Assembly (NCBI RefSeq): GCF_004010195.1
Contig: NC_057758.1
Coordinates: 3,091,819 to 3,155,818, forward strand
From: Chiloscyllium plagiosum
Lineage: Eukaryota
Reading direction: 5' to 3'
DNA: 64,000 nt
A program made the position numbers and the translations under genes. This document shows, one piece after another, positions 12,401-61,049 of this stretch. A model generated the notes under the pieces. It had not been told where the DNA came from, did no database searches, and worked only from the letters and a program-made list of their open reading frames with translations. How positions within the stretch are numbered: the stretch's first letter is position 1; each line of letters opens with the position of its first letter.

Positions 12401-13996
12401 GGCCTGTGTATTGCATGAACATTTTTTTCTTTCCAAAGTTTGAATGATTTTACATTGAAACTAACTCTAACTTTCCCTGTCTCCGTGGCATCTTGCAGGT
12501 GTTAGCACACAGAATGTTTGAAATTGAGTAATCATTATTTTTTTCATATCAAACTTTTTGCTGCGATTTCGTGGTAGAATATTTCCCATCCCCAATGTAA
12601 ACAACAGTGTTGGAGCTTCTGTTGTCTGTCTATTCCGCATTGAATCCATATACTGCCTTGTGTGTTATAGATATCTGATATGTACATCCGACTGAAGGGG
12701 CTTTGACACTATCTACCACAGTGGAGGGCTGTTTCTTTGGCTGCCTAGATGTCTTTTGCTTTTTTTTCGTATGATGCTGTTCATAATGAGCGTCAGTGGC
12801 TGAACGCCGCCTTAGTGAATGTGCAAAGAAGTATGACAAGCATGGATTGAATCGATAGTCGAAATGAAATTTTTATTACATCTTTTTGTTTTCCATGCAG
12901 AAGTGTAAAATACCAAGGGGCATAGTTTTAAGTTAAAAAATGACAATTTTTATTTTTACACAAAATATGCTCGGTGTCTGGAATGAGCTGCTAGGAAAGG
13001 TGTAAAAATCAGATCCGGTAGAAAGTTCAAGAGACACAAGAAACTGTCAACGAATGGAAGCAAACGGATCATGTATAGGCATGTGTGTTAGAATTAGTTT
13101 ATTGTCGGCGCAGATATCGTGGGCTGAATGGCCTGTGCATGTGCTGGATTGTTCTCTGCTCTGATTTCTATTTTTCCGTCCTCAAATCATTTACGTTTCA
13201 ATAATCTATTTTGTGTTTTTTAAAATACTCACATAATTTCAGCCTTCACAAATTATTTCGGTTGACCAATTTTACCTACCTTCTGAGCAAAGAAGTTCCC
13301 TCACATCCCAGTACCAAGTAAATGTTTCATTGTTCTGTAACTACGTCTTTAGTTCAAGTTTCAGCCACAGGTGGGAACGTCTGGCTGCCAAGTTCATTCA
13401 GAATCTTGTGTGTTCAACACATCATTCTTCATGTTTCTAAATTCCAGCTATTAAAGACATAGCCTGTTCAGTTCTCAATATTAATATTCTCATATCAGAA
13501 ATTAATACGTCGCTTCTGTTACGAGTATATACTTTAAAGCAAATCTCAACCAAACTACAGATGACTCCCCTCATTGTTGAAGCACTGCTGCCATACCAGC
13601 TTCTCGATGATACTGCAAATGTAGAACTGTGATAAATATCTTCAATATTTTTTCCGACATCTCCACATTTTTGATAAATAAGATCGTGCACACCAGGGTA
13701 CAAATTTAACTATTTTTCATATCAATCCAAACTGTAAAAATAAAATTATTTTCCGTTATTCTAAAGCCCTCATTGGAAGTAGAATGATCAACGAGTGAAA
13801 TTTTGTTTCAATGCATAGAGGATGAAATAGAAAACATTTAAATACAGGAATAGATGGAATTGTTGGAATTCTTGTGCAAGGCAAAAACACAGCCTCGATT
13901 AGTCACAAATCATGCATTGTTGACTAAAAAATAAGACATTGTTGTTCGGAGAGTGTAACTCATGGTAACAAAGATGCATTACTAGATAGAACATAG

Positions 13997-14163
13997 GAGA
14001 AAGTGAGGACTGCAGGTGCTGGAGATCAGAGCTGAAAATGTGTTGCTGGAAAAGCGCAACAGGTCAGGCAGCATCCAAGGAGCAGGAGAATCGACGTTAC
14101 GGGCATGAGCCCTTCTTCAGGATTCCTGAAGAAGGGCTCATGCCCAAAACGTCAATTCTCCTG
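13997..14163. mobile_element. Non-coding palindromic PLE mini-element
   Basis: 15-bp TSD ctagatagaacatag (13982-13996 and 14164-14178); 42-bp inverted arms centred on 14123, each with a hammerhead-like motif. Confidence 0.85.
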
Positions 14164-14549
14164 CTAGATAGAACATAGAACATACAACACTTCAGCATAA
14201 GAAGAGGCTTTTCAACTCATCATATCTTTGTCGACCATGAAGCCATGCATCTGGCCGCACGTGGTCAGTCTCCTCTGTACTTTGCCTGCTCATGTGTTTG
14301 TCGAAATGGATCGTAAATGCTGCTTCTACGACTTTCCCCGGCGTCACGTTCCAGGCATCCATCAACTTTGGTGAAAAGAAAAATCTCTCAGAAGTTTAAT
14401 TTTAACTTCCCTTTCTCACCTTAACCAACGTCAGCTGGCATTTTACATCTGCACCTTGATAAAAAGAAAAAATCTGACTATCCATGCACCTCATAATTTT
14501 ATATGCTTCTTTCAGGCCCAATCTTTCAGGCTCCTGTTCTCTCCAGAAA

Positions 14550-14792
14550 TCAAGCAGTTCAGGCAGAATCCGAGGAGCAGGAAAATAGACGTTTAAGGCC
14601 GGAGCCCCTCATTGTACAAACTGTAATAAAGCTCATGAACTGTTTACATGGAGAGGAATGTGTCATTCGTGATGAAAGGCTCCGGCCCGAAACGTCTATT
14701 TTCCTGCTCATTGGATGCTGCCTTATCTGCTGTGCTTTTCCCGCAACACACTCTCTTCTCTGATCTCCACCATCTGCAGTCCTCATTGTCTC
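14550..14792. mobile_element. Palindromic PLE mini-element inside an old CR1
   Basis: Inverted pLTR arms; plus arm gUGAUGAaaggcuccggcccGAAACGUC followed by the ...catctgcagtcctca pLTR end. Confidence 0.75.
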
Positions 14793-15509
14793 GAAAAATC
14801 AATCCAACTTCCTCCAAACTGTCCATGTATCGAACATAATCCAAGCCTGGCAACATCCCAATGAACCTCTTTGGCATCTCCTCAACGCCTCCAGTCTTAT
14901 TCTGAGACTGTTTCAAACTGGAACTGCACACAATACTGTAAATGTAATCTAAATCACATTTTATAAAGTTGCACTATAACTTGCTACAGGTGCATCAACT
15001 GATGAAGCTTTGTTCACTTCCTTTGCCAGTTTGAGGGAGCTATGGATTTGATCACAAGGTCTCTCTGTACATCAATGTTTTAAAGGGTTCTATGGTTTAC
15101 TGTACACTTTCTTGTTGAAATTGCTCTCACAAAACGTTTTAGTCACATTGTCTGGATTAAACACTATCTATTACTTCACGACCTAACTTTCTAAATGATC
15201 TTTAGCCAGCTGTCTTTTTTAATGACTTTCTCACTACCCACATCTTCACCAATCATCATGGCAAATGCAAACGTACTTATGTATCGACCTGCCTGCATTG
15301 ATATTTGCTAAATATCAATGATTACAGACCTCCATTTATTATACTAATAGTCACATAACAGATTTCCCTTCCATTTAAGTTTTATAGAAATTTCATAGCC
15401 GGGATTTTTCTGTATTTCGTGCTGCAGTAATTAACTGGTGAGAAAGATAGAATTTATTTTATGCATAAGGATTTAATATTAGTTAAAGAGCGAGCAATAA
15501 ATGCAAACT

Positions 15510-15994
15510 GACAATGTAACAACTTGGAGAAAGGCCCTTCAGCCCAGACTGGTCCATGTCAACCAAAGTATACACCATGCTAACCACATTTCGTTGCACT
15601 TGGCTCATGTTCTTCTAAACATTTCCTATCCAAGTATTTGTCCAAATGTTTTTTAAATGTTGTTAAAGGTACCTGTCTCAACTACTTTCACTGGCAGCTT
15701 CTTCCATGTACGTACCATTTTTTAATAGAAAAGAAGTTGGTCCTCAGGTTCCCTTTTATTCTTTCCCCTCTAACCTTAAATTGATGCCCTCTTGTCTTCA
15801 ATTCCATAACCCTGGGAAAAACCTTTTCCATGCCTCTCATGATCTTATATACTTCTATATAATTACCGCTCAATATTCTATGCTCTAATTTTAAAAAGTC
15901 ATCGCTTGTCCAACCTCTCCCTCAAGCTCAGACTGTTGAGTCCTGGCAACATCCTTTTAAGTTACGTCTGCACTTTTTCCATTTTACTAACATC
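15510..15994 (-). mobile_element. CR1 3' fragment
   Basis: IEVYKIMRGM...KTRGHQFKVRGERIKGNLR. Confidence 0.8.
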
Positions 15995-16240
15995 TGTGAC
16001 GATGCTGTCACTTTTAGAATGTTACTTTGTTCTTGTTTTTTTTTACGAGAGGTCAGAAAGGCAGAAGTTCGAAGTGTCGAGTTTAACAATGGCAGGGGAG
16101 AGGCCACTTCTCACAGTTCAGGTTTTATTCTAAATTTGGTTTATCTGCGGCAGTCGGAAGATGCTGACGTTCAGGAAAATTAGAAACCTTTATGAGATGC
16201 TTCCTGACTGCTTATGTCTGTCTGAAATGTCTTTGAAAGT
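15995..16240 (+). mobile_element. Gypsy LTR 5' fragment
   Basis: Begins TGTGACGATG, like the LTRs at 32930 (-) and 57365 (+). Confidence 0.6.
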
Positions 16241-16244
16241 TGTC

Positions 16245-18490
16245 AGTTAAGGATAGTATAACGGTGGCTGAGAGAACTTTTGATGAGGATTTGTCTACAT
16301 AGGTAGTGTGGGCTGAGGTTAGAAACAGGAGAGGAGATGTCACACTGCTTGGAGTACTTTATAGGCCTCCGCAGACCTCCAGTGAGGTGGAACAGAGGAT
16401 TAGCAAAAATTATTCATGGTAGGAGTGAAAGGAACAAGGTGGTCATTATGGGGGACTTTACCTTCCCCAACATTGACTGGAAATGCTATAACTCTAGTTC
16501 GTTGGATGGATCAGTTTTTGTCCAATGTGTACGGGAGTGTTTCCTGATTTAGTATGTGGAAGACCCGACAAGAGGGGAGGCCACGCTGCATCTGGTGCTT
16601 GTTAATGAACAGGCCAAGTGTTTGATTTAGTTGAGCACTTTGGAGAGAGTGACCATAATTCAGTTACGTTTAGTTTAGCGATGGAAAGGGATAGGTACAT
16701 GCCACAGGTCAAGAGTTATCGATGGGACAAGGACAGTTATAACGCGATTAGGCAAGAATTCGAATGCATTGAATTGGGGTAGCACAATTCAGGAGATGCA
16801 GATAATGGAAATGTGGAGCTGGTTTAATGAACAGATATTACGCGTCCTTGATAGGTATGTCCCTGTCAGGCAGGGAGGAAGTGATAAGGAAGGGATCCGT
16901 GGTTTACTACAGGAGTTGCATCTCTTGTTAAGCAGAAGAAGGGGGCTTTATGAGGCAAGATAGTTCAGATGAGGCGATGGAGAGGAACAGATCAGCTAGG
17001 AAGGATTTAAAGAGAGAGTTAAGCAGAGCAAAGAAAGAACATGAGCCGTCTTTAGCAAATAGAATAAGGAGAACACTAAAGCTTTCTAAAGATATGTGAG
17101 GAATAAAAGGATGTTTAGGGAAGAAATAGGGCCGATCAAAGACAGAAGTGGGAAGTTGAGTGTCGACGCTGTGGAGATTGGAGAGGTACGAAACACGTTG
17201 GTTTTCACTCGGGAAAAGGAAAATATTGAAGAGGAGAAGAATGAGGTATGGGATATTTGACTAGAAAGGATCGATATTAATTCCGAACAGGTGTTATCAA
17301 TTCTAGAAGGAGCGAAAGTAAACAAGTCCCCTGGGTCGGATGGGATTTATCCAAGGATTCTCTGAGAAGCTAGGGAGGAGACAGCAGAGCCCTTGGTTTT
17401 TACAAGATGATTAGGGGTTTAGATAGGGTTGACAGTGAGAATCTTTTTCCACGTATGGAGTCAGTTATTACAAGGGGGCATAGCTTTTAATTAAGGGGGG
17501 GTAGGTATAGGACAGATGTTAGGGGTAGGTTCTTTACTCAGNNNNNNNNNNNNNNNNNTGGGCTTGGATCGGCGCAACATCGAGGGCCGAAGGGCCTGTA
17601 CTGCGCTGTATTCTTCTATGTTCTATGTTCTATGTTCTAAGTTGAGTCGTCATTGTCTACAGATTAAGTACCAGAGGACGGGAGGATTGGAAATGTTGTG
17701 CCCTTGTTCGAGAAGGGCAGCAGAAATGTCCCAGGTAATTATAGCCTTACTTCTGTTGTAGGAAAGTTTTTGGAAAAGATTATAAGAGATAAGATTTATA
17801 ATCATAAACAAGCAACAATTCGATTCAGATACTCAACATGGTTTCATCAAGGACAGGTCGTGTCTCACAAACCTTATTGTGTTTTTTTGAGAAAGTGACC
17901 AATCATGTAGATGAGGGTAGAACAGTTGACGTGGTACATATGAACTTCAGTAATGCCTTTGAAAAGGTTCCACAAGGAGGCATGGAATCGAGGGTGATTT
18001 AGCAGTTTGGATTAGAAATTGGCTTTCTGGAAAAAGGCAGCGAGTGATGGTTGATGGAAAGTATTCAGCCTGGAGTACGGTTACTAGTGGTGTGCCACAA
18101 GGATCTGTTTTGGCACCACTGCTGTTTGTCATTTTTATAAATGACTTAGATGCAGGCATAGGTGAATGGATTAGTAAATTTGCAGACAACACTAAAGTCG
18201 GTGGAGTAGTGGACAGTTTGTACGAATGTTACGGTTGTGGGGGACTTGGATAAACTGTAGAATTGGGCTGCGAGGTGGCAAATGGAATTCAACGCAGCTA
18301 AATGTGAGGTGATACACTTTGGGAAGAATAACAGGAAGGCAGAGTACTGAGTCAACGGAAAGATTCTTAGTAGTACAGAGGGATCCTGGAGTTCATGTAT
18401 GTAGATCCCTGAAAGTTGCCACCCAGGTGGATAGTGCTATTAAGAATCCATACGGTGTGTTAAGTTTCATCTGGGGAGTAATCGAAGGTG
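16245..18490 (+). mobile_element. CR1 ORF2 (APE endonuclease and RT) with nested younger CR1 3' end (17401-17638)
   Basis: [42 protein letters not shown]...KFADNTK; nested piece ends in (TTCTATG)n. Confidence 0.9.
17542..17558. other. Assembly gap (17 N)
   Basis: Run of N within a CR1 tail. Confidence 1.
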
Positions 18491-18504
18491 AAGAAAGCCA
18501 TCTT

Positions 18505-18795
18505 GGGGCAGTAGGGTGGTTCAGTGGTTAGATCTGTTACCTCAAAGTGCTCGAGACTTAGGTTCGATTCCAGCCTCGGGAGACTGTCTCTGTCAAGTGT
18601 GCACATTCTCCCCGTGTCAGCGTGGGTATCCAATGGGTGCTCCGATTTCTTCCCACAATCAAAAGATGTGCAGGTAAGTTGCATGTAGCGTTTGATACGT
18701 TAGTCAGAGGGAAATGGGCTTGGGTGGGTTACTCTTCAGAGGGTCTCTGTCGGCTTTTAGGACGAAAGGGCCTGTTTCCCCAATGTAGCGAATCG
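18505..18795 (+). mobile_element. HE1-type SINE (diverged)
   Basis: ggtggttcagtggttag...ggttcgattcc, tgcacattctccccgtgtc, gggcctgtttcc tail. Confidence 0.85.
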
Positions 18796-18796
18796 A

Positions 18797-21700
18797 ATAT
18801 AAATGCACATGAGCTTGAGCCAGAAACCAACAGACATTTTAGAAATTTAAGGAGGGACACTAGCCAAGCATGCATCGAATTTGAAAGGATGAAATAATGC
18901 AATTTTGTTAGGTGGAAACGTCCATTCAAAGTTACATTAGAGAGATGGTCTTTTTGGAGGAGTTCAAAAGTTCATTCGCTATGGTTGTGAGATCTCATGT
19001 GGAAGAATAGTGTTAAACGGCAAGCTAAGCAGCGAAAATGGTCGAAAATCGTGAATTTGTTCATAAATACACGTTGGGTTTCGAACATCAATTTCAATCT
19101 GGGATGGAAGAAAGTGGGAAAAGAGAAATTCCCACATGGTAAGGGGAAAGTAGATTTCGGTGAAAGTAATAAAGGTAGCTAACCACAGTTTATCAAGGAA
19201 ACACATGAAGGAGAAAGAGAAGTCAAAAAGCTTCAGTTGTTTCAAAGCAGGAAAGTAGGCCAAATTAAGTCGCAATGCTGGTGAGTTAGCAAAAAAAAAG
19301 CAAGAGAAGATGGAAGAAGTAAAACAAAAGAAATCAGTGAGTCGTGATGAAGTGGTAAATGAAAGCACAGCGGAGGTTGAAAATCTGCACCACAATGTAG
19401 ATTGTTTGAGGAGGAATTGTCAGATCTGCATAAATCATTTACTTGCAAACATAAGTTGTACTGTCATAGGTGGAGCAGGTAACGAAGTTACAGTATTAAG
19501 ATATTTGGGATTAGGTCACGGGTGGCACGGTGGCACAGTGGTTAGCACTGCTGCCTCACAGCGCCTGAGACCCGGGTTCATTTTCCGCCTCAGGCGACTG
19601 ACTGTGTGGAGTTTGCACGTTCTCCGCGTGTCTGCGTGGGCACCCTCCGGGTGCTCCGGTTTCCTCCCACAGTCCAAAGATGTGCAGGTCAGGTGAATTG
19701 GCCATGCTAAATTGCCCGTAGTGTTAGGTAAGGGGTAAATGTAGGGGTATGGGTGGGTTGCGCTTCGGCGGGTCGGTGTGGACTTGTTGGCCCGAAGGGC
19801 CTGTTTCCACACTGTAATCTAATCTAATCTAAATCTAATCTAATCAATATCTGATGTCGAGAGATGTGGAGATATGCTACGCAGAAGGACGATTGTAAGA
19901 GTGCTTGTAAGTGGAATTCATTGTACAGCAAGAAGTGCTCTATTATGTATCATGTGGTTAATACTTCCAGTGAAACTTAGAGAAATTACTGGAAAATTAC
20001 TGCATTACTGGAAAAACTCCCAGCTCTAGAACTACAAATTCTCATTGTTAACGATATATTTGGATAACTGGTAGGAGTGCAGTCTAACGTGGTTGAAAAG
20101 CCAGCAGAAAATCTAGTATTACAGAAAGCATATCCTGGGATTTTTCCTGACTGAGTGAGAACAAGGTCACAAATTCACAAGTTGCAACAGCAGGGGAAAT
20201 CAAAGAATGCAGAAAGGGAAGTCGAAGTAGAATTATCAATGACCAACCTTGCTCGAATGGTTGATACATAACCGGAACAGGTGGAGGGTAAAATGGATAT
20301 TTTTAGCTCAGAGAAATTAACTGTGTTACAACAGCAAGTTGAAAAACTGATACAATTGTATCAAGAAAAATACACGGAAGAAGCATCTGTACATATCCCT
20401 GATATCTGCTATCCTAGAAATGATGTCTTTATGAGGAAATAGGACTACCACATATTCAGGCAAAAGACAAATAGGAAAATGTTCATCAAACTCATGTTAG
20501 CAGTGGGATATAGAAAGGAGTGGTTACGATTTGTGCATGATCTATCATGTGCAGGTCTTTTAGGGGTATGAAAAGCTCATCTGAAATGCAAAACGTGTTT
20601 ACTGGCCTGGATAGCATATGGATGCAGAAAAATTTTGCCAGAAATATCAAACATGACAGATAATTGGAAAACAATAGCAGTAATAAAATCGGTATCTTTA
20701 ATACTGATTCCTGCATTTTAGGATCCTTTTACAAGACTCTTAAATTGATTCTGCAGGATGCCTACTTAAAATAAAAAGTGGGAAATAACATTTATTAACA
20801 ATAAGGGATGTGTTCACTAAATTTCCTGAGGCCTTTCTATAATGCATTATCACAGCGAAAAGGAATGTAGAAGAGATGCTCATTTTTTTCCCTGGATATG
20901 GATGAGCCCCTGAGATACAAATCAAATGGAGGATCAAACGTTACATTAAAAAAAAACAAGAAGTTATGGAAACGGTAGAAATAAAACAATTGAAATCCAC
21001 TGCCTACCATTCAGAATCGTAAAAAGTACTAGAAAGATGGCATTAGATGTGAAAGACAATGTTGAGAGCTTATCATCACGATTAATCAGATGAATGGGAT
21101 GAAGGAATTCAGTTTGCACTTCTTGTATTCGGACATGCACCAAATGAATCCAACAAATTCAGTACATCTGAATTAGTTTTTGGCCATGAAGTGAGGGAAT
21201 CAATAAAATTGATAAAGGAGAATTTGGAAAATTAGAATTCAGATCACGTATTTGGACTGTTCGTCAAATTTCAGTGAACGGTTAAATAAAGCAAGGGGGT
21301 TGGCTAGACAGCATATAAAATTGCACAGTATATGGTGAAACAGCATGAAATCAAATACTCGCTAATTTGCTAACACAGATAATTTGTTAGTGTTAATTTC
21401 AGTGATAGGTGTACCTTTCAAAACAAAGTCTTGTGACTCCTACCAAGGCGGAAAGAGAGTGTATCAGGTGAACTATTTGATAGTGACACCAGACAGAAAG
21501 CAATCTTACAGAGTGTAACATATGAATATGTTCCGCAATTGTTTTGAAAGGGAAGGAAAGCAAAAGGAGAACGCATTGTTGGTTACAACACAGAGTGAAG
21601 AACGATGTTCAGAGGATTGTGAGTTAGACATTCTTCAAATTAATGGTCAATAGACAATGAGGAAGTTGTCAAAATTTGGGAATCTCAATTGAAATACTTT

Positions 21701-27344: not shown

Positions 27345-27665
27345 CCTATTGATAAAGTTCCCTTGAGAATGAAACTGTAAAAAAAAATGTTCTGGGGTTT
27401 ACACGTGAAAGAACTGAAAGCAAAATTATAATTCTAAAAGATGAGAGACTTAACAAACAATTCTGGTCTATTTCAATCTCAGCTGCATCACACTGCAAAC
27501 GTTTGCGATAAACTCTATGTCTTATGATCTTATACTTTTTAACCACTTGATGAAGGCGTAGTGCTCCGAAAGCTAATGCTTCCAAATAAACTTCTTGAAC
27601 TATAATCTGGCGTTGTGTGATTTTTAGCTTTGTACACACAAATCTAACACCGACACCTCCAAATT
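27345..27665 (+). mobile_element. PLE pLTR, another family
   Basis: uUGAUGAaggcguagugcuccGAAAGCUA followed by ccaaataaac...ctataa...gttgtgtgatttttag; related degenerate copy at 40050-40225. Confidence 0.65.
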
Positions 27666-27689
27666 GTGGCAACAAATAGGGAATGCGTA

Positions 27690-29280: not shown

Positions 29281-29284
29281 ATGA

Positions 29285-37299: not shown

Positions 37300-39730
37300 A
37301 ATCATGAAAACATTGACAATTCATGTTAAGAAGAATTTGGAGGAATTTTAGACAAACATTAAGAACAAGTGGGTAAAGAGAGAAAGAGCTAGTGCACTCA
37401 GGTACAAAGTTACTGAATCTTTGTGTAGTTCCAAAAGAAGTGGGGAATGTGCTTGATGCGTTTGTCACATTGATATTCATGTGGAAGAAGAACGTGGGCT
37501 CTGGTAAGATTAGGGAGGAGTATGTTTATATTCATGGGCATGTCGAAATTAAGTAGGAGGAGCTGTTTTAAATCTTGGTAAAACATTAAAGTAGATAGGA
37601 CCCGAGCACATGAAGGGTTCTATCGTAGAAGGCTGAAGCAGACAAAAGAAGAGATTGCTTGAGCCCTGACATAGATGCACGTGTCCTATTTCGGCTTAGG
37701 TGAGCTTCTGTAAGACTGTGTAACAACTAATGTTGGCTTTTTTTAGTATAGTTTCAGATACAATCTAGGATATTGTCGGCTGGTGACGCCAACATCAGTA
37801 TTGAGGAAATCATTGCAAAATACATTACATCAAGACTTACTCGCATTGAGAGGGGATCAGCCTTTATTCGATTTTATCAGCATGGTTTTACTCTTGCCTC
37901 ACAAATATGTTGATGTCTTTATGAGGAAGTTTGCCTGGTTATTTATGAGGAGAGAGCTGAGGATATTATTTAACTGGACATTTCTAAGGTATTTGACAAT
38001 GTCCCCCCGGTAAGCTATTCAAGAAGATTAAGTCATATGAGATTCACCATAAGTTGGCAATTTGAATACAAAACTGGATTGGTTATAGAAGGTAGAGGAT
38101 AGTGATGGAGTGATGTTTCCCTTTCGTGGTATGTGAGCTGAAAATGTAAGTGTTCGGACCAGTAAATTTTCAGAAGATGAAAAAATAGGCGGAGTTATGG
38201 ATAGCAACTGTGAATGGAAAATGATAAACCAGGATACATCTCAGACAGAAATCTGGGCAGCGAAGTGGCAGATAGAATTTAGTCCAGTCAAATGTGTGGT
38301 GATACAATTTGAAAGTCATGGGCAAGAGAAATATATGGACCAAAAGACAAGAAACTTGGGAGAATTGATATTCGGAAACATAGCTCACTGAAATTTTCAA
38401 AAACGTGATAAAGAAGTACACGCGATTGCCTTCAGTAGAGGGGCGCTTAGTTTAGAAGGTGGTAAGTCATGTTGCAGGCGTTTAAGACTATTTCAGCAGC
38501 ATTTCAGAATATCGTGTGCACTTCTGTATGCCACACTGTAGGAGCTTGTCAAGGTTTTACGGTGAACGCAATGTAGGTTTTCTCAAATGCTGCCTGAACT
38601 GGACTGTTTCAACTATAAGGCTGCATCCGAGGAGCAAGCGAATCGACGTTTCATGCGTAAGCCCTTCATCAGAATCCTCTGAGAATGTAAAACAGGAGAG
38701 GTCTTTTGTAGGTGTGGGAGGTCGTGGCCCTAACCTGGGCAGGGCTGACTGTAGGGAAATTAGTTGGTGGCGCATGGCTGCGAGTGTGGAGTGGAGGATC
38801 CAGCAAGAGAACCTTTTCATGCGGGTTTTGGATTTGTAGTAAGCACTGGTTGTCTTGCTCAGTTTCACAATTTTCTGGTCTGAATGTAGTCGGGAGCCCA
38901 CACAAGATCACTAAATTAGGTCGGAGGCGCTGATGTTCCAGTTGTGGAAGTGGTAGCGAGTCTGCTTCATGATGTGGCTGACGAGCTTCGAAAAAGAGGA
39001 TATGACCTGGGGACGTGCAGTGAGAGAGGCAGACTCACTGCAATCTTTTTAGAGAGAGGAGGAGAATTCCTTCATGGTCGGCATCCTTGGAAGAGGTTTC
39101 ACATCAGATTTTAAATCAATAAAGAGAGTGAGAACTACAATCGCACGAGGTCAGAGTCAAGAGTGTGTGCTGGAAAAGAACGTCAGGCCAGGCAGAACCC
39201 GAGGAGCAGGAGAATCGATGTTTCAGGCATAAACCATTCATCCCTGACTTGACTCTGATCTCCAGCATCTGCAGTCCTCACTTTCTCCTGAATCAACTAT
39301 GTGGAGAGATTGGACCAACTTGTATTGCTTTGGATAGAGCGTCAGAGGCTGAGGGACTATGATGGAGATAATAGAGGCTGATGGAGCGTATGCAATTATA
39401 ATTGAAATGGATAAGGGGGATGGTTGGTGAAAAGTTGTTTCCCAGGATGGAAAGTTCAAATACTCAAGTGTGGGAGAACAAATGTTTGAAACAGATGTGC
39501 GATTATTTTTGTTTAATTACAGAGGATGGTAGGTGCCTGGAATGTGAAACCAGCGAGGCAGTTGCTTTAGCGAAAATTAAGACATATTTCACAGACATAT
39601 AACAGACAGATAATAGACAGCTTAGAAGATGAAACCTGTTTGGGTGGATGTGATTAGTTTATAAAGATATCATTGTCGGCACAAACAGAGTGCTTCAATT
39701 GACGTGCTCTTGTGTCGTACTGGTCTAAAT
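37300..39730 (+). mobile_element. Old CR1 ORF2 and 3' end, split by a PLE
   Basis: WAAKWQIEFSPVKC and FPRMESSNT remnants. Confidence 0.7.
38617..39292 (-). mobile_element. PLE deletion derivative (pLTR, ORF N-terminus, pLTR)
   Basis: 8-bp TSD tcaactat (38609-38616 and 39293-39300); two tandem minus pLTRs flanking ILHSTLAAMRHQLISLQ; short inverted pLTR end. Confidence 0.75.
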
Positions 39731-40869
39731 TTAATCTTGTAGAAGAAGTAAAAATCAGTAAAATGTCACGGACGATGGTAGGGCTTTGAAATCCACTGCG
39801 TGAAAGAATAATAGAGGCGGTTCACTTCACAAATTCTGAAAGATACTTGGATTTAGTTTTGAAATGCCATGTCTAAGCACTGAGTCGAGTGAGTCGGAAG
39901 ATATTAGATCATTTTAGAGGCAAACAACTTATCGGCCGCATGGTCCTCCTGTAATGTGTGTTGAAATGACTCGATGAACACAACAGGGATATAAATTGAA
40001 AAATAACTGTTCACTCTTGTGGCGAAATAGGGATATGCCGTTATTGGGATGGAGTGGACAAAGTCAGATGTCAAGCAACACCAATTTATAGTCCCACCAG
40101 TTTATTTGAAATCATAAGTTTCCGTCAGGTGACATCAGCCACTTCATCTGACGAAGGACCAGCGCTCTGAAATCTTGTGAATTCAAACGCACCTGATGGG
40201 CTATAACTAAATGCTGTGTAGCTTGAAATATATCATACTCGTAATTAAATGTAGAATTTAGTTATTCAGCAAATGGGAAGAAAGCAAGAACTGCTGCTCC
40301 TGGAAATCTGAAACAAGACAGAAAACACAACCTTATAAACTGGAAAAGGATCCCCGGACTCGAAATGCTTCACATCTTTCACTCTTAAGATGCTTCAAGA
40401 TCTGCTGGGTTTCTCAGGAAGAAGTAATATCAATATTCCTTTGCCATTGCGTTTGAGTACGAATTTCGGAAACAATTATTTCAAATATACATCGCTTCTG
40501 ATACCACACTTTTAACATCCCACTGTCTTTCTCTCGTTATTTAAGAAGAGACGTATTTTTAAAAATAAGTTTGCAAAATCTTGACTTACCATTCTGATTT
40601 AGCTGAAACATTTTGCAAATATCTAAAGTCATTGTTACTACACTTTATGCAAAAGCACTCTCGCATTTTTCACAATGAAGACGTGAAGATAATTGGTCTA
40701 CATTTGCTTTTCATTCTGCTTCAGTTATTCGTGTTTAAACTTTTCCTATGACTGTTCAATATTAATGCAATATCTCAAGCACCGGAGCATTGGTGTGGAA
40801 GTGGTAATAAGTAAATGCTGCAATATTCCATAATATCCTTTCTTAAACTTACAGAACTACCATGATGTT

Positions 40870-50820: not shown

Positions 50821-50869
50821 CCGTTCATACCTTTGATAACCTTGCTCTCATAAAGATGTTACTAAACAG

Positions 50870-51320
50870 AAGAAATTTGCAAGGCTGTTCTTTGGACTCA
50901 AGGTTCTGAGTTTTAGGGAGAGTTTAGACAAGCCAGGAGCTTTTTTTTTTAAGAGTGTAGGAGAGTGAGGAGGTATCTTATGGAAGTGCATTAGATCATG
51001 AGAGGCATGAATAGTGTGAATGCACTTAGTATTTTTCCTAGGATTGTGGAATCGAAGACATCAGTTTAATGTAGGAGGGGAAAGAATAAAAGGTAACCTG
51101 AGGGGCAACGTTTTAACACAGAATGTGGTACGCATATGGAATGAGTTCCCAACGGAAGTGGTTGAGGCGGGTACATTAACAATATTTAAAAGACATTTGG
51201 ACCAATGCATGGATACGAAAGTGTTAGAAGTATATGTGCCAAGTGCAGGGAAATAGGATTAGTGTGGAAGTGTATTTTGGTCAGCATGTCTCTGTGCTGT
51301 AGGAGTCCACACTCTATGAA
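50870..51320 (+). mobile_element. CR1 3' fragment
   Basis: HQFNVGGERIKGNLRGN...WNEFP. Confidence 0.8.
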
Positions 51321-52151
51321 TCCATAACAAAAATCAGTGTTCTACCAGTCAAGCATTTTCCTACTTACTGAAAAAAAAATTTCTGTGACAAGATATCACC
51401 CTTGCACAACGATGCGGACTATCTCTGAGAAATCAATTTATTTTCTTGCCAAATGAGAATAACGACATGGCCATAATGTAGTCAACACAGTGTTGCTGAA
51501 GTGAAATGAATAAGTAAATGTAGCGTGTAAATTCTGACCGTGAGTTTATTTAACAGTTGTTATCCAGAACAGTTATGTCTGTTCTTATTGTAAAAGTAAA
51601 CGTTGAATTTACAATTATCGAACTGGATGTTCGAAAATTTGATATTTATAGTGAACTACCCATAAATATCTCCCCAATGAATAAAATTATCTTGCTGCAA
51701 CTGAATCTACCTGCACTGAATATAATTATCGAGTTGGGAAACTAGCGATAGCAAATTTAAGTAGCATGAAGAGAAGCTCTGCGAAAGGACAAATTAATGA
51801 ACTTGATACATTGAATTAAGAATGATGCTAATTTGTGTTTTCGCAGAACGCTTCCCAGTTAATTGACATCTCATGGTAAGGTACTTAGTGAACAGCACAG
51901 CGCTGTCCTCATAGTAGACTGGACATACTTTGTGCAAGGGTGATATCTTGTCACAGAATTTTTTTTTCAGTAAGTAGGAAAATGCTTGACTGGTAGAACA
52001 CTGATTTTTGTTATGGATTCATAGAATGTGGACTCCTACAGCACAGAGACATGCTGACCAAAATACACTTCCACACTAATCCTATTTCCCTGCAATTGGC
52101 ACATATACTTCTAACACTTTCGTATCCATGCATTGGTCCAAATGTCTTTTA
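51187..52151. repeat. Near-perfect inverted duplication (51187-51409 and 51930-52151)
   Basis: Manual alignment: 223/222 bp, 2 substitutions and 1 indel, 520-bp spacer. Confidence 0.93.
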
Positions 52152-52209
52152 TGTTATTTAGAAAAATGAATGTTACAGTGATCATTATACAGTCTCGACT
52201 AGGAATAAG

Positions 52210-52312
52210 CCAATTGTCAGCTGCACTCATTTGTTTGTTGTTGAACAAATGCGAAACATTTCCAAGATCAGACATCTAATTAAATCTCTGGAGCCTGAAA
52301 TCTCGTATAAAA
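52210..52312 (+). promoter_or_regulatory. Putative core promoter of the GPCR (CCAAT and TATA box)
   Basis: CCAAT at 52210-52214 and TATAAAA at 52306-52312, 57 bp before the ATG. Motif and position only. Confidence 0.45.
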
Positions 52313-52362
52313 ATAAATACTTCCCAGTAAACCTCTGAATCCGTGCAGGACACCTGTTCAAA

Positions 52363-52432
52363 ATGCATGAGGTACTAAGAGGTCTGCTGTTTGCCATTTC
52401 TTATCCAGTCTTTGCTGCTATCGGAGTCTCAG
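52363..52432 (+). CDS. GPR139-like class A GPCR, coding exon 1
   Basis: ATG at 52363 reads MHEVLRGLLFAISYPVFAAIGVS plus 1 nt, then GT donor (G|gtagac). The phase-1 join to exon 2 restores GVS-A-NLAVIVIL (TM1). Not in the ORF track. Confidence 0.85.
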
Positions 52433-55110
52433 GTAGACAAGTGTATTGTTTTTGTAGTGCATGTTCTGCTTTTTTTTTTCAGTTGTACTTACCATCCTTT
52501 CAGATAGCCTTTTCCCCCGTTACAGGAAGAAAAGATTGATTAATTGAGGACTCCATTGCATTTAACGACTATGATATATCACGCTTTCCAGTCTGCATTG
52601 TGCCGGTTAATAAATAGTTAGCCCTCACTATCCGAAAGTAAAGCGTTCCCAGGAAACGTTTTGTAAGCCAGAAATGGCGTTAAATGAAGGTGCATGAATG
52701 ATATAGGGAAGCATGTCACCGTTTTTCGTAAAAGTGAAAATGCTCTTCAGATGCACAAAAACGTGTCCGAATGTAAGACTTCCAGAAAAGCAAGATTGCA
52801 CAAAGAGACTGTTCGAAAAGAGGGTGATACCTGTATTTATACCTTAAAAATACTGACCCTTTTGCGTGAAATTAATATTATAATTTATTCCTTCACAGAA
52901 AGTTTATTTCGTAATGTTTATGCGCATAGCTTTCGCATATCACCTGTATAATTTGCTACTTTACTGATGTGCAATCTACCAACAATTTGACTGAGTGATC
53001 TCCCATAATTTTCGCATTTCCCTCATTCACTGCTCACATCTTCTGGTGTAAATGTATATCTGTGTTACTGACAAGTAACTCAGAACACTATAACTGCAAT
53101 TCGATTCTCTTTTTGATTACTTTCTAAATGATGAGTTGCAAAGGACAAAACAATTCTTATGTTTAGTATTATGATAGTGGCATTCACTTCGATAGGTCTA
53201 GATTTACACTGATAATATTCTGTTTTGTTACAATGGCATGCATCATTGTTACTTTGATGTAATTGTAAATTTGTTTAACTAGCGCCCGTTACAAGGTGGA
53301 CTGATTCCTGAAAACCGTTCACTTATTCAACTGTTGAATAATCCCTCGTTAAACTGAAAAGGGTATCATGGACAAGTATGCTATTGTCAAACAAAAAATG
53401 TGATGAAAATTATAAATATATCATTTGTGGAATCATTAATTTGTGCAGAAGTAAACACCCCACACACCCCTACTGTTTCTGCTTGATTCTGCTCCGACAC
53501 AAAGGTTGTTGCTGATGGCTCCGACCTGATAACCATTGAATGTGTGCTTTCCATCGTCTCCAAGCATCAGCTGATTCTTTCAATTTCCCCAGTTACATTG
53601 CTTCTTGTGTGATGCAGAAAGCCAATAAGTACTGCAATCAGACGTTTGCAATATACAAAGACATTTGTTAAAATACAACACCATCACATAATGAAGTTGA
53701 TAATTTATCCCGATGGCTGAGTGCAGCGTGAATAAAAATTGATTTTGTAAAAAGACCGAAAATGATTTCGACATCATAATTTCCCAATACATCAATGCAG
53801 ATCATTATTTGATTAGGAGAAAGATGTCCCATTGCACAATACCAAAAATATCATCGGCAAATTTGTTAAGTATAGGTCGACTATTTAAAGACATTTTTCA
53901 TTCTCAGAGTGAATAAATTTGCAACAAACAAGATTTTAATTGCAATAGAATCCTAGTTTGTTTCTTTATCCAAGCTTGTTGGCGGTAATTTGCTCTACAT
54001 GTCCTTCAGTTTTCCGTGACGTCATTTGCTAAGACACCACCACACCAGCCAAAGAGGGAAAAAAAGCTCATGGTTTGGTGTAAGGTGTTTTCATGGAGAG
54101 ATGATTGAATTGCGATGTGAAAAAATAGAGTTGCTTGAATTTTTCAGCCTGCAGCATGCAATGAGTCACGTCTTATAGGGATCAGTGCTCAGACTTCAAA
54201 CAGTCACGAATTGCACAAATGATTGGAAAGGATGGGCAGATGCTATGTTAGCTGCAATTGCTGACCCCAGGAAAGTGAGGTTTTAGTGGTAGCCATACAT
54301 AGAAAAAAGATGTAAATGTATTGAAATTAGGTCATTGAAAGTAGGTTTACTAGTCCAATATGAGGAATGTGTGGGTGAGCGTATGAGGAAACGGTAGAGA
54401 GTCTGTTGCATGCCATTTAAAGTTGTTAGATCCAGAGGTTAAATAATTGAACCACAAGCGGTCCTGCATGGATTTGGCTAGGTGGGTCCCGAAAGGATGT
54501 GGAGAGGAATCAATCTTTTTTCATATGGGAGAATCCATAACTACGAGTCATAGTTCAAAAATAAGGAAGTGTTTATCTGAGACAAATCTGCCGCTGTTTT
54601 ATTTCAGTCAGAGGATTGTGAATCCCCTTTCTCAAAACGCAGTTGATGCAGAGTATTAATATAAAACAGGTAGACTTGGAAAAATAAAATTGCCCTTACA
54701 ATCTCATGAATTACCATTTCATTTGATATTGGACAAGTTTCACATAGCTGAGCAAACTACTTGTGTTACCGGTTCCTATGTTTGCATTTTTCTTGCATTT
54801 CTTTTGTTGTATGACACGTCTCATGTGAATATGATCCTGTTATGTTGAATGCTATGTAATGCAGGAATTTGTTTCACTTATCGTGTTCTCCGTTCGTACC
54901 CCTAAGACTCATTTATGTTTTTATGTTATTAGCAATTATTTATCTTTGCAGAAATAATTGTAATGAAGCCAAAATGCTTCATGAATAATAGATGTTTTTC
55001 CACAAATCAGATCACTTCTGTAAATATTGAAAATCATACAGTGTTCTCTCAAATATGGGGAGTGAAAGCTGTTTAAAAAAAGCTTGTCTTGCTCTTGCTT
55101 TCTTTTATAG

Positions 55111-56042
55111 CTAATTTGGCTGTGATTGTCATCCTTTTGCAAAGAAGATGTGGCCTCTCAGGATGTATGACTTATTATCTAGTATCTATGGCAGTGACTG
55201 ATCTCCTGGTTCTGGTCACAATTGTGATATTAAATCGAATTGCTGGAATTTATTTCCCATCCAGTTTCCTCTCTATCACACCCATATGCAGTTTTCGTGC
55301 AGCTGTAAATTTTGCAGCCATTGACAGTTCTGTTTGGTTAACCGTGGCTTTCACCTTTGATCGTTTTGTTGCCATTTGTTGCCAGAAGCTGAAAGTTAAA
55401 TACTGCACTGAAAAAATGGCAGCATGGGTGATCGGAGTTGTGTCAACATTGTCTTGTGTAAAAAACATCGCCACATATTTTATTTATGAGCCTGTATACA
55501 TTATTAACAATCTTCCCTGGTTCTGTGCTGTAAAGGCGATATACTACGTATCATTGACATGGGCTGCATATGATTGGATTCGATCAATTTTAACACCTTG
55601 CCTCCCATTCATTCTGATTTTGCTTCTCAATGCTCTGACCGTCAGACACATTCTTGCAGCGAATGTATCTCGCAGGAGGCTGAGGTCCCAGAACAATGGA
55701 GAAAATCAGGGTGACCCAGAGATGGAGAAGCGGAGAAAGTCCATTGTTTTACTGTTTGCCATCTCGGGCAGTTTTATCCTGCTGTATTTGGTATTTGTTG
55801 TAATGATCCTTTATGTCCGAATAGCGACTGCTACATATTCCTCAGGTTCAGATGCAAATGATCCTATCTTTATTCTCCAACAGTCCGGATATATGCTTCA
55901 ATTATTGAGTTCCTGCATCAACCCCTTTATTTATGCAGGAACACAGAGTAAAATAAGAGCTGTTTTAAAGAACTGGATGAAATATCCATTTAGTCCATTC
56001 ATAAAAATATTTACAATGTGTAAACGAGACAATTCAATGTGA
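55111..56042 (+). CDS. GPR139-like class A GPCR, coding exon 2 (spliced product 333 aa)
   Basis: Polypyrimidine tract and acceptor (tcttttatag|CT). Uninterrupted ORF with hydrophobic helices and motifs MAVTDLLVL (TM2), SVWLTVAFTFDRFVAIC (TM3), PCLPFILILLLN (TM5), MLQLLSSCINPFIY (TM7). Resembles GPR139/GPR142; orthology not shown. Confidence 0.92.
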
Positions 56043-56607
56043 ACTCCAGCTATTATTGCAGAATCTGCTCTTCACAGGCACCTCAAAAGACAATGCCACG
56101 TGAAATGGTGCAATTGCTTATCAAAGTGTTAGTAGAAGAATACTTAATCAAACCACATTTATCCTGAATTCAATCATGTAAACTCTTCTCAATTAGTTTC
56201 TACTTTTGTTCCATATTGCACTGTTTATCATATGCTATATGTATCGCCAAAGCATGGTGTGTTTGCTGATTCGTGATCAGCTCACCATGTGTTAGGCACT
56301 CAGGCGTATTATCTATATAGTATATGTAACATGAACGTGTATAACATCATTGCTTGTGTACGTAAATGTAACGAATTTCATTCCTCATATGTCAACTTTA
56401 AAGACAAGGGAAAAAAGACTTTGGCCAACTGAATAACTCCTTCAGAGACTGAAAAACAAGATGACTTCACCCATTGCCTGGATGGACTTCCCCATTGAAC
56501 TGGTGTATCAGAAAACAATACCGATAGCTCCACCAGGGTATTTTGAAGCTTAGCATGTGAATGGTTGCAAGTCTCATATTTAATTATTTTATACCTTTAC
56601 ATAAGTC

Positions 56608-56613
56608 AATAAA
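56608..56613 (+). promoter_or_regulatory. Candidate polyadenylation signal of the GPCR
   Basis: AATAAA about 570 nt after the stop codon. Confidence 0.35.
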
Positions 56614-57114
56614 ATTTTGACTAGATTTTGACATTTGTAGTATTCCAGTGACATTTGCCGGAAGAAGAGCAGTAAAAAAAAAGTTTCTATTCCAGATGAT
56701 AATATTATCTGCAGACTTCTGGACCACATTACTTCTTCAGAGGTGAAGAGACACTGAACAGACATTCGATCTGGCAGCTGATATTAAGCAAGAGACGAGC
56801 GATCATAGTGTACCATATCATTGTCATTTCTAACCATTTAGATAGCTATCTGCCTCATAGCACACAAAAGAACAGTTACCTGTCTTTTTTCTGCATTGTC
56901 AGTCTTGCGTCTTCTATTAAGTCATTCAGGGCCCAGGGGCACGCCACAAGTCTCGTCATGGGTATTTCCTTTCTCAGCCTCATGTCACAGCTTCAGGGCA
57001 TTTGGATACAAGCAACTAAGATGAACTGTTTGTACCCTCTTTCTTGCAGTATGATCCCATACATCGTGTGTTGATTGTATGTCGTGCAACTAAATTCATT
57101 AGAGTCATTTAGGG

Positions 57115-57350
57115 TGGCGCTGGAATAAGCACAGCAGGTCAGGCAGAATCCGAGGAGAAGAGTCGATATTTCAGGCAGGATCCTTCATCATGCCTGGGGA
57201 GAGAGAAGGGGATTGACTATTAAATAGGTGGGGGAAATGGGGCTAGACGAAAGGTAGGTCGGATGGCAATAGATGGATGCAGGGAAGAAGAGATGGCGAT
57301 AAGTCAGTGGCAATGGTGGAGTAGAAAGGTGGAAAGTGTGATGGGCAGTT
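57115..57350 (-). mobile_element. Degenerate PLE pLTR/3' fragment
   Basis: gctggaataagcacagcaggtcaggcagaatccgagg... followed by a purine-rich tract, as at 9060-9300. Confidence 0.6.
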
Positions 57351-58734
57351 TATGCTGTGTCAGGTATGACGATGCTGCTCCTAAAACAACGTTATGCTGT
57401 CTTTGGCTTTTTTCTGTTTTCAGAGAGGCCGTAAAAGGCACAGCCTCTGAAATGTCTCTGATTGAAGGGTTTTCTGTCCAGTATAATTGTAGCTATCAGA
57501 TACTGCCTCAGACAACAGGCTTTCAAAATTTTGAAAAAAAAACGCTTGTACAATGAAAGGAAAGTTGACTGGTCTCCCAGCTCAGCTTTTCTCTAGTTTT
57601 GTTTTGTTTTTAGTAGTACAGTTAAAAGAGTTACTGGAACCCAAAGAAGGAGGTCCATGATGATCTTTCGCTCTGATTTCCTTCCTGTAAGACCCTGTGT
57701 TTGATTAAACGTTTTTTTTTTAAACGAAGGTGCGTTTATAGAGGTTGTTGGAAGTATTTGGAATAGCATCATTAAGTTGCGATGATCTGTTGGATTTTCG
57801 GATAAGTTAAAATATTTGGTCTTCTGTTCTCTTTTGTTTGTATTGCATTTGGTAATCTTGTAAATAAGATGATTGTCTTTTATCCTTGGTGTTTAATTCG
57901 GTTAGTTTAAACAGTGCTGGGGATAGCAATGGCTCTTTCGGTCACCATGAGTTTTCTGGAGGTGGAAGAAGTGATCCTGGTGTTTTGTTAAGGCTTGAAG
58001 TTAGTTAAGGCTAAACTGCTGGAATTAGCAGGCAAGCTGAAGCGAGAGCTGCCTCCTCCCGTGAGGAGAGGAGAGGTAATTACAGTAATAGCTCAATGTT
58101 TAAATTTGATGCAAATGCCATCAGAATCTTTCGAGATGCCTAAAGTACAATTGAAAATGAAGCTGCTTGAGTTAGGCACACAAGACCAGGAATTACAATT
58201 AAAAGCAAAAGAGGGAGAAAGGGTGTGAGAGGAAAAGATGAAGCAGAGGGTGTTTGATCTTCAGAAATTGGGACTTAAACAGGGAAGACTGCTTACAGAC
58301 ATAGAAATGAAGCTTGAAGGTAAGCTTCATGAGGAAGTGTGTGAAGATGAGCGTGCCCAAAGTAGAAAAAGGCCTGGTTCAAAACTTTTTAAAAATATTC
58401 AAACAATGTCTAAGTGTGATGAGAACGATGTGGAAGCCTTCTTTATATAAATTGTAATGATGCCTAAGCAAATGCAGTGGCCAATGACCATGTGAGTTTT
58501 GAAGATGCAAACAAAACCTGTAGGCACAGCTTGTGAGGCATTCGCATCGCTATCGGAGGAGGTATCTGGGGCGGATGAACAGGCGAGGAAAGCTATCCTC
58601 AGTGTTTATGAGTTTGTGCCAGAAGCCAACAGACAACGTCTCTCTTAATTTAAAGAGGAACAAAGTTTGTGCGAAGATTTGTAGCTCGGGTGCTCGTTGC
58701 TGTGGTTCTGTTCGCCGAGCTGGAAGTTTTTGTT

Positions 58735-58774
58735 GCAAACGTTTCGTCCCCTGGCTAGGCGACATCATCAGTGC
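58735..58774 (-). ncRNA. Minimal hammerhead ribozyme motif
   Basis: gca-CUGAUGA-u-gucgccu-agcc-aggggac-GAAA-C-GUU-ugc. Confidence 0.72.
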
Positions 58775-59423
58775 TTGGGAGCCTCCTGCGAAGCGCTTCT
58801 TTGATGTTTCCTCCGGTGTTTATAGTGGTCTGTCCCTGCCGCTTCCGGTTGTCAGTTTCAGCTGTCCGCTGTAGTGTTTGGTATATTGGGTCCAGGTCGA
58901 TGTGTTTGTTGATGGAGTTTGTGGATGAATGCCATGCCTCTAGGAATTCCCTGGCTGTTCTCTGTCTGGCTTGCCCTATGATAGTAGTGTTGTCCCAGTC
59001 AAATTCACACACACGCAGACAACAAGCAACATGAATACGACTGGGACAACACTACTATCATAGGGCAAGCCAGTTCCTATATAGGACAAACAGGAAGACA
59101 GCTAACAATCCGCATACATGAACATCAACTAGCCACGAAACGACACGACCAGCTATCCTTAGTAGCCACACACGCAGACAACAAGCAACATGAATTCGAC
59201 TGGGACAACACTACTATCATAGGGCAAGCCAGACAGAGAACAGCCAGGGAATTCCTAGAAGCATGGCATTCATCCACAAACTCCATCAACAAACACATCG
59301 ACCTGGACCCAATATACCAACCACTACAGCGGACAGCTGAAACTGACAACCGGAAGCGGCAGGGACAGACCACTATAAACACCGGAGGAAACATCAAAGA
59401 ATCGCTTCGCAGGAGGCTCCCAA

Positions 59424-59463
59424 GTACTGATGATGTCGCCTAGCCAGGGGACGAAACGTTTGC
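59424..59463 (+). ncRNA. Minimal hammerhead ribozyme motif
   Basis: gua-CUGAUGA-u-gucgccu-agcc-aggggac-GAAA-C-GUU-ugc. Confidence 0.72.
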
Positions 59464-60212
59464 AACAAAAACTTACAGCTCGGCGAACAGAACCACAGTT
59501 AAAGAGGAACACCTGTCAAACCTACGTTGAGATTGAAATGATCAATCAAGGAAGTAGTCATAGGTGTAAAAGGGCATTAAAATTCGAGGACACCTATAAC
59601 GCTCTTTGAGAGACGATTATTATTGAGGATTTCAAAAATTCACTCCTTGACGCACTGAGAACTCATGTGGAAGAGCAGAGAGTTCAAACAGCAAGATTGA
59701 CAGCTGGAATGACTGCTGAATGTTAGTGGCTACCAAATCAATTTCAATTCGTGAGGGGTAGAAATTGGGGAAAAGAGAAATTATCACTTAGAAATAAAAA
59801 GGTAGATCTCGGTGAAGATCATAAAGATAACTTACAATAGAGTGAAAAAACACCCTCAAGGGGAAAGAGAATTTAAAAAGCATTGGTGTGCTCATTGCAA
59901 CATAAAAGCTACATGAAGCAATGTGTTGGTGTATAAGGAAAAACATTGGGAAGCCAGAGATAGGAAAACAGTAAATTTTGTTGGAGTGGCAATGGACAGG
60001 ACATTGGAGAGCAGAAAGCTGCAACAGAATGTACAATCTGAAAGAAGGTTAATTAAGGAGCAAATGCCAGAGCTTCCTAAAACATATTCATGCGAAGGTA
60101 AAATTCACTCACAAAGGGCAGCGAGAAAGAGCTTACAATATTAAGGGATACAGGATCCCCTCAATGTATGATGTTGAAATATCAGCAGATGTGTACTTCT
60201 GAAGGACTATTG

Positions 60213-60445
60213 TTGAAAAATGTGGTGCTGGAAAAATACAGCAGACCAGACATCATCCGAGGAGCAGGAGAAGCGACGTTTCGGGCATAAGCCCTTATTC
60301 AGGAATCAGGAATCCATTCCCGAAGAAGGGCGTGTGCCCGAAACGTCGATTCTCCTGCTGCTCGGATGATGCCTGGCCTGCTGTATTTTTCCAGCACCAC
60401 ATTTTTCAACTCTGGTACTCCAGCATCTGCAGTCCTCACTTTCTC
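60213..60445. mobile_element. Non-coding palindromic PLE mini-element
   Basis: 17-bp TSD cttctgaaggactattg (60196-60212 and 60446-60462); about 95-bp inverted arms with two hammerhead-like motifs. Confidence 0.88.
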
Positions 60446-61049
60446 CTTCTGAAGGACTATTGCCAGAAATGGTAAGAGTCACAGGAATTCAAGGTGATAC
60501 AACAGCGCTCAGTTATGTAAAGTGAGGTTAGAGTGTCCAGTGAACAGTGAAGAAGTCGTAGTGGGAGTACTCGACAAACTCTCGGCTCCAGGATTGCAAA
60601 TTGTCCTTGCTCATGATACAGCTGGTTCATAGGTACGAGTGGTGCCGACTGTTCTTGAAAATCTGATAGAAACGCAGGCAACTGACAATTGCAAGACATA
60701 TATCCTGGCATTTCTTTTCCGAACGGTGTGTCAACAAGTCAAATACTCAACAGTTGAAACAGGAGATACGAATGAGTACAGGTTAGAACGTTGAAGTGGA
60801 ATTAGCAGAGACCCTGTTTGATAGCACAGCCAAACGAGGAACAGATAGATGACAATGCAGACATCTTAAGCTCAGATAAATCATCAGAAAGATGAAAATG
60901 TCAAGCAATTGTATCAAACGGGATACTCAGAAAGAAAATCCAAATGTACACTTGAATGCTATACTCTATAAAAATTTCGTTTTTATGAGGAAGTGGAGAT
61001 CATTACATATTCAGGCAGCGGAGAAATTGACAGATGTTCATCTCGTAAC

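Follow-up and report, generated by a model that had tools for sequence, protein, structure and literature searches.

Palindromic insertions in the window

We analyzed a stretch of 64,000 nucleotides (nt) of Chiloscyllium plagiosum DNA (assembly GCF_004010195.1, contig NC_057758.1, positions 3,091,819 to 3,155,818, forward strand; hereafter the window), which carries two short insertions derived from the hammerhead ribozyme-bearing end of a Penelope-like element (PLE). Insert 1 (167 bp, 13997-14163) and insert 2 (233 bp, 60213-60445) are flanked by exact target-site duplications (TSDs) of 15 and 17 bp, respectively, as described in the original prediction made from the sequence of the window. 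In both, two inverted arms stand head to head with a hammerhead-like motif on either strand, the junction lies a few bases 5' of the CUGA of the ribozyme core, and no open frame of at least 120 amino acids overlaps the insert, all of which agrees with that description (Table 1). Positions in the element take C3 of the CUGA core, in hammerhead numbering, as 0, with the ribozyme cut expected between +27 and +28. On this scale, the view of each insert as one full and one partial pseudo-long terminal repeat (pLTR) is inexact: neither arm is complete on its 5' side, where both break off at about -2 to -5. The arms differ at their outer ends, one running through the tail to +125 and the other stopping at a short end.

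Both inserts fold into single long hairpins (fold z-scores of -11.3 and -19.6), and forcing a hammerhead fold on them costs 44 and 36 kcal/mol. Each of the four hammerhead cores carries one substitution at a conserved position, and the fold-back is predicted to lock the cores. None of the five Rfam matches at E ≤ 1 was a hammerhead; the microRNA matches merely reflect the hairpin, and the same scan, run without a dedicated tRNA search, returned no RNA polymerase III head (tRNA, 5S, 7SL). At the center of insert 2, the template's 5' end appears twice (AGGAATC, 60301-60314), a 7-nt re-copy that recurs in copies L003, L006, L015 and L017 and resembles either slip-back by a telomerase-related reverse transcriptase (RT) or a templated repair insertion.

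The parent element

The insert sequence aligns over its entire length to a PLE parent, which was traced upstream from the window copy at 9052 by two genome searches into RT and GIY-YIG frames. This copy extends into parent sequence and thereby ties the short stumps to the autonomous element. Another copy, L275, represents a full-length but decayed parent with 434 N inside, in which the core and tail are followed by an N-terminal frame, RT motifs (+1641 to +1923), a C-x4-C-xx-C linker (+2563), a GIY-YIG motif (+2677 to +2713) and a second hammerhead core (+3178); the segment from -4 to +125 therefore immediately precedes the coding region on its 5' side and recurs at the 3' end. L275 itself sits inside a satellite array. 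The N-terminal frame is opened by an ATG at about +163 in copy L343, a codon that is altered in L275, and the parent copies are frameshifted. Pfam matches on other parent copies comprised RVT_1 (E = 2.7e-6; 27.7 bits, just below the cut-off of 29.6) and GIY-YIG (E = 1e-4, above the cut-off), whereas NCBIfam and PDB sequence searches with pieces of the parent gave no match.

Endonuclease-bearing (EN+) PLEs are defined by two cysteines between GIY and YIG (CCHH) and by a DKG motif (PMC8557442). The motif order of L275 and the Pfam matches place RT before a C-terminal GIY-YIG in one frame, the CCHH residues are found in IYCIRCTRC..YIGET and a later HL..EHF, and the DKG motif appears as ADKGG in copies L150 and L130. 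A CX2-5CxxC linker between RT and EN, a trait of Neptune and Nematis, is present as CNRKKCKTC. We provisionally call the parent 'Neptune-type', a label drawn from this linker; splitting Neptune from Nematis calls for an RT phylogeny. Judged by alignment and motifs, both inserts represent the end, with its hammerhead, of an autonomous Penelope element of Neptune/Nematis type, and the PLE origin proposed earlier is supported.

Abundance and layout of the insertions

An unselected census sampled 10-kb stretches, 120 in all, taken at round coordinates from the 40 largest contigs, and also included the window (1.264 Mb in total, of which 28 kb are N). It yielded 196 clusters and 61 head-to-head pairs; 52 of the pairs (4 from the window) were short, neither arm starting upstream of -15. 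The resulting density of 42 short palindromes per Mb, or about 150,000 per genome by extrapolation, confirms the suspected recurrence and shows the copy number to be very high. A second tally with the limit set at -20 comprised 53 short pairs, of which 48 carried the 35-nt tail on one arm, 4 on none and 1 on both. Outer ends of arms fall at two preferred positions, the short end at about +80 to +95 and the tail end at +125; many tails at other loci are followed by a T, which is also the next base of the parent RNA. TSDs of 14-21 bp (mode 16) flanked 22 of 23 young pairs (identity of at least 85%) in a search tolerating shifted ends and one mismatch in ten. An inverted 5'-truncated copy, a one-sided tail and a TSD, as described for complex PLE insertions (PMC3846280, PMC8557442), are found here as well (48/53 and 22/23).

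In 28 of the 48 one-sided pairs, the arm lacking the tail had the greater 5' reach, and in 16 the tail arm did. At three diagnostic sites, the two arms of a pair agreed in 35/38 (loop II), 26/32 and 34/34 cases, compared with 0.44, 0.31 and 0.84 expected from random pairing; both arms therefore usually come from the same RNA or source. The few discordant pairs may stem from two separate RNAs or from mutations acquired afterwards.

A sharp 5' stop and a frequent extra G

Arm ends were read from a separate sample, picked solely by an exact +34 to +68 pattern with 20,538 matches in the genome. Among the first 100 matches listed, 74 arms at 70 loci were read, reduced to 73 by dropping one duplicate flank, and 8 arms were ended by N or by the locus edge. 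Among the 47 arms reaching -1, 27 stopped between -7 and -1 (11 at -3, 8 at -4; two of the 27, L335 and L336, are possibly miscalled). The stop rate per nt was 0.117 in this interval, compared with 0.0055 at -300 to -8, 0.024 at 0 to +10 and 0.0059 at +11 to +33, placing it about 20 times above background. The junctions cluster just 5' of the core, and the insertions are not random one-off truncations: the arms share a fixed 5' stop, so the original prediction was right that the junction is set by something stereotyped. The A of TCATTCC, an initiator-like motif (initiator consensus YYANWYY), falls at -4, and the loose end listed on that side was -4 in three of four public sequencing runs from other organisms. 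The stop is not explained by a splice acceptor at -4, where the parent has TC rather than AG at -6/-5; an acceptor-like TTAG lies near -35 and is accompanied by no peak of ends.

Position -5 is C in all 69 long, parent-like copies, ruling out a subfamily that carries G there. With K and T fixed at -7 and -6, a choice meant to keep out any G originating from the parent or from typical joins to the opposite arm, KT-G-ATTCC occurred 706 times genome-wide and KT-[A/T]-ATTCC 366 times. This ratio of 1.93, against a background of 0.47-0.50, makes G at -5 about four times commoner than chance. In roughly half of the first 20 of the 706 contexts, the G came from neither arm nor target. Base 60307 of insert 2, a G at -5 on the element strand, is a candidate copy of the cap. 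Untemplated 5' G has been taken as a cap signature in L1 and SVA insertions (PMC4859970), and the Penelope pLTR contains an internal promoter with an initiator (PMC2377424). From the shared stop and the frequent extra G we infer a cap and a start site, the two features likely marking the capped start of the element RNA.

Several observations weigh against this interpretation. The commonest arm end is -3 rather than -4, and a second hammerhead family, with stem III AGCU, gathers its arm ends near the core more loosely, giving a wider stop at -4 to -10 on few copies (50 arms seen). The anchored sample of arms is confined to the first 14 Mb of contig C1, and the G test held the two upstream bases fixed. 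Outside the half mentioned above, 3 of the first 20 contexts take their G from target microhomology, which likewise implies a C on the cDNA (complementary DNA) end, and the remainder are ambiguous. Anchored arms ending exactly at -4 had G at -5 in 3/8 and A in 5/8 cases. Exact matches with ATG ahead of ATTCC number 1,230 in the genome (L241-L270, L278-L307), and the opposite arm accounts for only part of them; the extra sequence may therefore exceed a single base, more than a cap by itself would explain. Finally, the concordance of arms fits fold-back of one molecule equally well. A perfect junction centered on CATG also recurs.

Proposed assembly from two run-off cDNAs and its alternatives

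Each palindrome consists of two short copies of the hammerhead-bearing PLE end, set head to head between TSDs and, on balance, probably rebuilt at every insertion from two run-off cDNAs. Transcription of the element would begin at the A of TCATTCC (-4), the endonuclease would nick both target strands about 16 nt apart, and an RT-EN dimer would draw on the two internal start sites to prime at both nicks. Both short cDNAs would then run off the 5' end of the capped element RNA, with the RT copying the 7-methylguanosine (m7G) cap as an extra base, and host end joining would fuse the two cDNA ends via microhomology or short templated filler. The ribozyme would stay uncleaved in the template RNA and be inactive once inserted, and long copies would derive from the 3' repeat of the same segment. 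In the anole, a PLE protein nicks and extends both strands, uses two internal starts that bound the tail, acts on uncut RNA and is predicted to form a dimer (PMC11167929). The wider proposition, that PLEs here integrate mostly as paired strong-stop cDNAs by dual-nick priming, run-off, cap copying and end joining, strikes us as evenly poised between true and false.

Palindromes could also be built anew while the stop at -4 reflects an RT pause or roadblock at the hammerhead edge on a longer RNA, and/or fold-back self-priming, an account we find unlikely. The stop does fall at the 5' strand of helix I, but this helix is already unwound when the RT arrives at -4. RTs can add untemplated bases at stalls, yet a pause predicts neither a G-specific excess nor an initiator-like motif at the stop. 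The second family likewise stops near its core, and fold-back would suit both the concordance between arms and the self-priming proposed for palindromic PLE junctions (PMC3846280); however, 3/38 pairs carry different loop II variants on their two arms, and fold-back from one primer cannot yield both the pairs with a longer tail-less arm and the reverse pairs.

Templates that are short capped RNAs, started at -4 of promoter-keeping copies lacking an open reading frame (ORF), mobilized in trans and made palindromic only on integration, seem improbable. They would predict the same stop and extra G, 20/73 young arms retain sequence 5' of -7 that could be transcribed, and pLTRs mobilize sequence in trans in rotifers (PMC3846280). 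Nevertheless, the anole element required the first 172 nt of its ORF in the RNA (PMC11167929), and copies L364, L374, L391, L065 and L240 carry sequence 3' of the tail, as expected from an ORF-bearing RNA.

Ribozyme activity and propagation

The last alternative is that of the original prediction, a palindromic unit delimited by its ribozymes that propagates like a retrozyme or a short interspersed nuclear element (SINE) through cleaved or circular RNA. Its structural premise was borne out: the majority of the family has the features of a minimal type-I hammerhead (CUGANGA, bulge, stem II, GAAA, palindromic ACGU stem III, NUH), with a weak helix I of two pairs, a U.U and one pair. Ends, by contrast, do not accumulate at the cleavage site, as only 1/69 arms stops at +26 to +30 and the boundary lies about 32 nt upstream of the expected cut; a second peak at +28, hinted at by older copies, was not seen in young ones. 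A single-cell poly(A) run from a related organism covered both strands without a pile-up of starts or ends and with no adapter-marked ends among the loose ends listed, and is uninformative for self-cleavage.

Junctions were highly diverse, the 48 unselected one-sided-tail pairs having 44 different sets of junction coordinates. Largely unique junctions were what the original prediction had named as evidence against itself, although, given many source copies, they would not by themselves exclude propagation. When either insert or a young copy served as query against the genome, the look-alikes returned mostly had different junctions; of 28 further loci inspected for insert 1, not one combines the junction of insert 1 with its short +39 end. 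The density of short palindromes and some exact recurrence of junctions would suit a propagating unit. In loci mostly selected on the junction, GGAATGATTCC occurred in 13 copies, with the tail on the right in 7, on the left in 5 and unclear in 1, and spanned TCAT, TTAT and TAAT loop-II subfamilies; TTCATGATTCC had the tail on the right and left in 6 copies each, and GGAATCATGATTCC occurred in 6 copies with two loop-II variants, both arms changing together. As both polarities occur among recurrent junctions, a single master cannot be their source, and recurrent junctions are not lineages. The first 30 of 1,230 matches were also inspected for a SINE-like master, in the form of a shared 5' head upstream of ATGATTCC, and showed none. 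SINE copies descend from a master and share internal structure, whereas junctions here vary and polarities cross; non-LTR (long terminal repeat) retrozymes consist of head-to-tail hammerhead units, whereas the inserts are head to head.

With recurrent junctions spanning subfamilies and polarities, both outer ends abutting the duplication with no shared carried-over flank in the junctions listed, no end pile-up at the cut site, four mutated and folded-shut cores, and an inverted layout in place of the head-to-tail one of retrozymes (PMC7229834), the self-propagating, ribozyme-delimited non-autonomous class is not supported, and the retrozyme or SINE model is largely refuted and highly improbable.

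Rare head-to-tail joints, linking the -3/-4 end to a +125 or +90 start, were observed in L065 (2330-2660), L391 and L240. Such short head-to-tail units could be scored as retrozymes, although they are bounded by the run-off end and RT start sites and not by the cut site.

Relation to known systems

Penelope of D. virilis and Pen2a of A. vaga share with the present insertions a head-to-head 5' inverted copy, a one-sided tail of 30-40 bp, TSDs, microhomology joins and a GIY-YIG parent (PMC3846280, PMC8557442, PMC2377424). Unlike in these elements, the arms here span only 40-130 nt, such products make up most of the insertions, and the 5' stop is sharp with an excess of G. The published account of PLE inversion invokes self-priming on an antisense template (PMC3846280). 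Poseidon of Anolis carolinensis, studied in vitro, likewise has two start sites, nicking of both strands and a hammerhead at the start of the ORF region, but belongs to a different clade without the Zn linker; run-off at a capped end and palindromic minimal products are not described in the accessible parts of that report (PMC11167929).

The bulged base before stem II and the palindromic ACGU stem III are shared with the minimal type-I hammerheads of metazoan PLEs; in Schistosoma, hammerheads on opposite strands lie 100-700 bp apart, compared with about 5-20 nt here, and dispersed motifs were ascribed to truncated PLEs (PMC4209133). L1 twin priming offers a further parallel, with opposite-strand primers producing inversion, small breakpoint indels and an untemplated G at complete 5' ends, yet L1 primes at the poly(A) end and at a variable internal site (PMC4859970), whereas both primers here lie at fixed sites near the 5' end, so that a palindrome of overlapping arms results. 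Non-LTR retrozymes are also non-coding, PLE-related carriers of type-I hammerheads with TSDs of more than 4 bp, but consist of head-to-tail repeats that the ribozyme cuts into circular RNAs (PMC7229834; bioRxiv 10.64898/2026.07.22.740005); the inserts described here are inverted, have their boundary away from the cut site and are folded shut.

The inserts represent a published PLE insertion layout at its most reduced, rather than a novel class of self-copying ribozyme; what the present analysis adds is the fixed 5' stop with its excess of G. A literature search, with most subscription journals outside its reach, found no run-off or cap copying in PLEs. The inverted ends, one-sided tails and hammerhead role of PLEs are stated open questions (PMC8557442, PMC11167929, PMC3846280), and some 10^5 minimal products offer base-level statistics on both priming sites, nick stagger and template 5' end. 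Assembly from two run-off cDNAs predicts that capped transcripts begin at the A lying four bases ahead of CUGA. If PLEs here do integrate mostly in this way, about 150,000 palindromes would record where transcription starts, the cap, the stagger of the nicks and the two sites of priming; the hammerhead at the 5' end would be uncleaved in RNA undergoing transposition, and the inverted pLTR with its one-sided tail would be explained for the whole PLE class. For annotators, these abundant hairpins would be integration scars, not a SINE family or microRNA precursors.

Other copies and features of the window

The window holds nine clusters of the inserts' hammerhead family (Table 1). Of three looser copies predicted earlier, those near 7048 and 14550 belong to this family, whereas the one near 40050 carries a different, GAAA-GC-UA type hammerhead without a match to either insert; the copies beginning at 9052, 10326, 38618, 39123 and 57119 are additional to that list.

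Table 1. Inserts and further copies of the same hammerhead family, in window coordinates
Feature	Position	Strand	Detail
Insert 1, left TSD	13982..13996	+	15 bp, exact repeat
Insert 1, tail arm	13997..14122	-	+125 (outer) to -2; tail about 13997-14031; 94% to parent reference
Insert 1, minimal hammerhead core	14093..14120	-	GAAA to GUAA (A13U); core reading
Insert 1, short arm	14122..14163	+	-4 to about +37/+39; alignment to parent segment; outer end shares 2-nt microhomology with TSD
Insert 1, short-arm core	14126-14153	+	G12A; core reading
Insert 1, right TSD	14164..14178	+	exact repeat
Insert 2, left TSD	60196..60212	+	17 bp, exact repeat
Insert 2, short arm	60213..60306	-	about +88 (outer) to -4; C3 at 60302; G8U
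Insert 2, junction	60307..60314		one extra base at 60307, then 7-nt repeat of 60301-60307
Insert 2, tail arm	60315..60445	+	-5/-4 to +125; C3 at 60320; U4C; tail 60410-60445
Insert 2, right TSD	60446..60462	+	exact repeat
Old head-to-head copy	7050..7146		internal deletion; same family as inserts
Longer head-to-head copy	9052..9486		extends into parent sequence, -163 on one arm, -271 to -95 on the other
Solo tail arm	10326..10403	+	+47 to +125
Old head-to-head copy	14553..14792		78-82%; 52 nt filler at junction
Old solo fragment	38618..38672	-	0 to +54
Head-to-head copy	39123..39288		tail on both sides; only such among 53 pairs
Old solo fragment	57119..57201	-	about -10 to +75

The AGCU stem III family shows the same head-to-head layout with tail at 40050-40215 and 27500-27680. 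A third family (58700-59498 and 25-54) forms a head-to-head insertion with 308-bp arms that are 98% alike, with intact hammerhead cores on both arms and templated rearrangements at its center. On the forward strand, a 321-amino-acid open frame at 55077-56042 matches a rhodopsin-family seven-transmembrane receptor model (E = 6e-23). Finally, an inverted repeat of about 220 bp (99%) at 51187-52151, in which no hammerhead motif was seen, flanks 520 bp of unrelated DNA and looks like a local inverted duplication.

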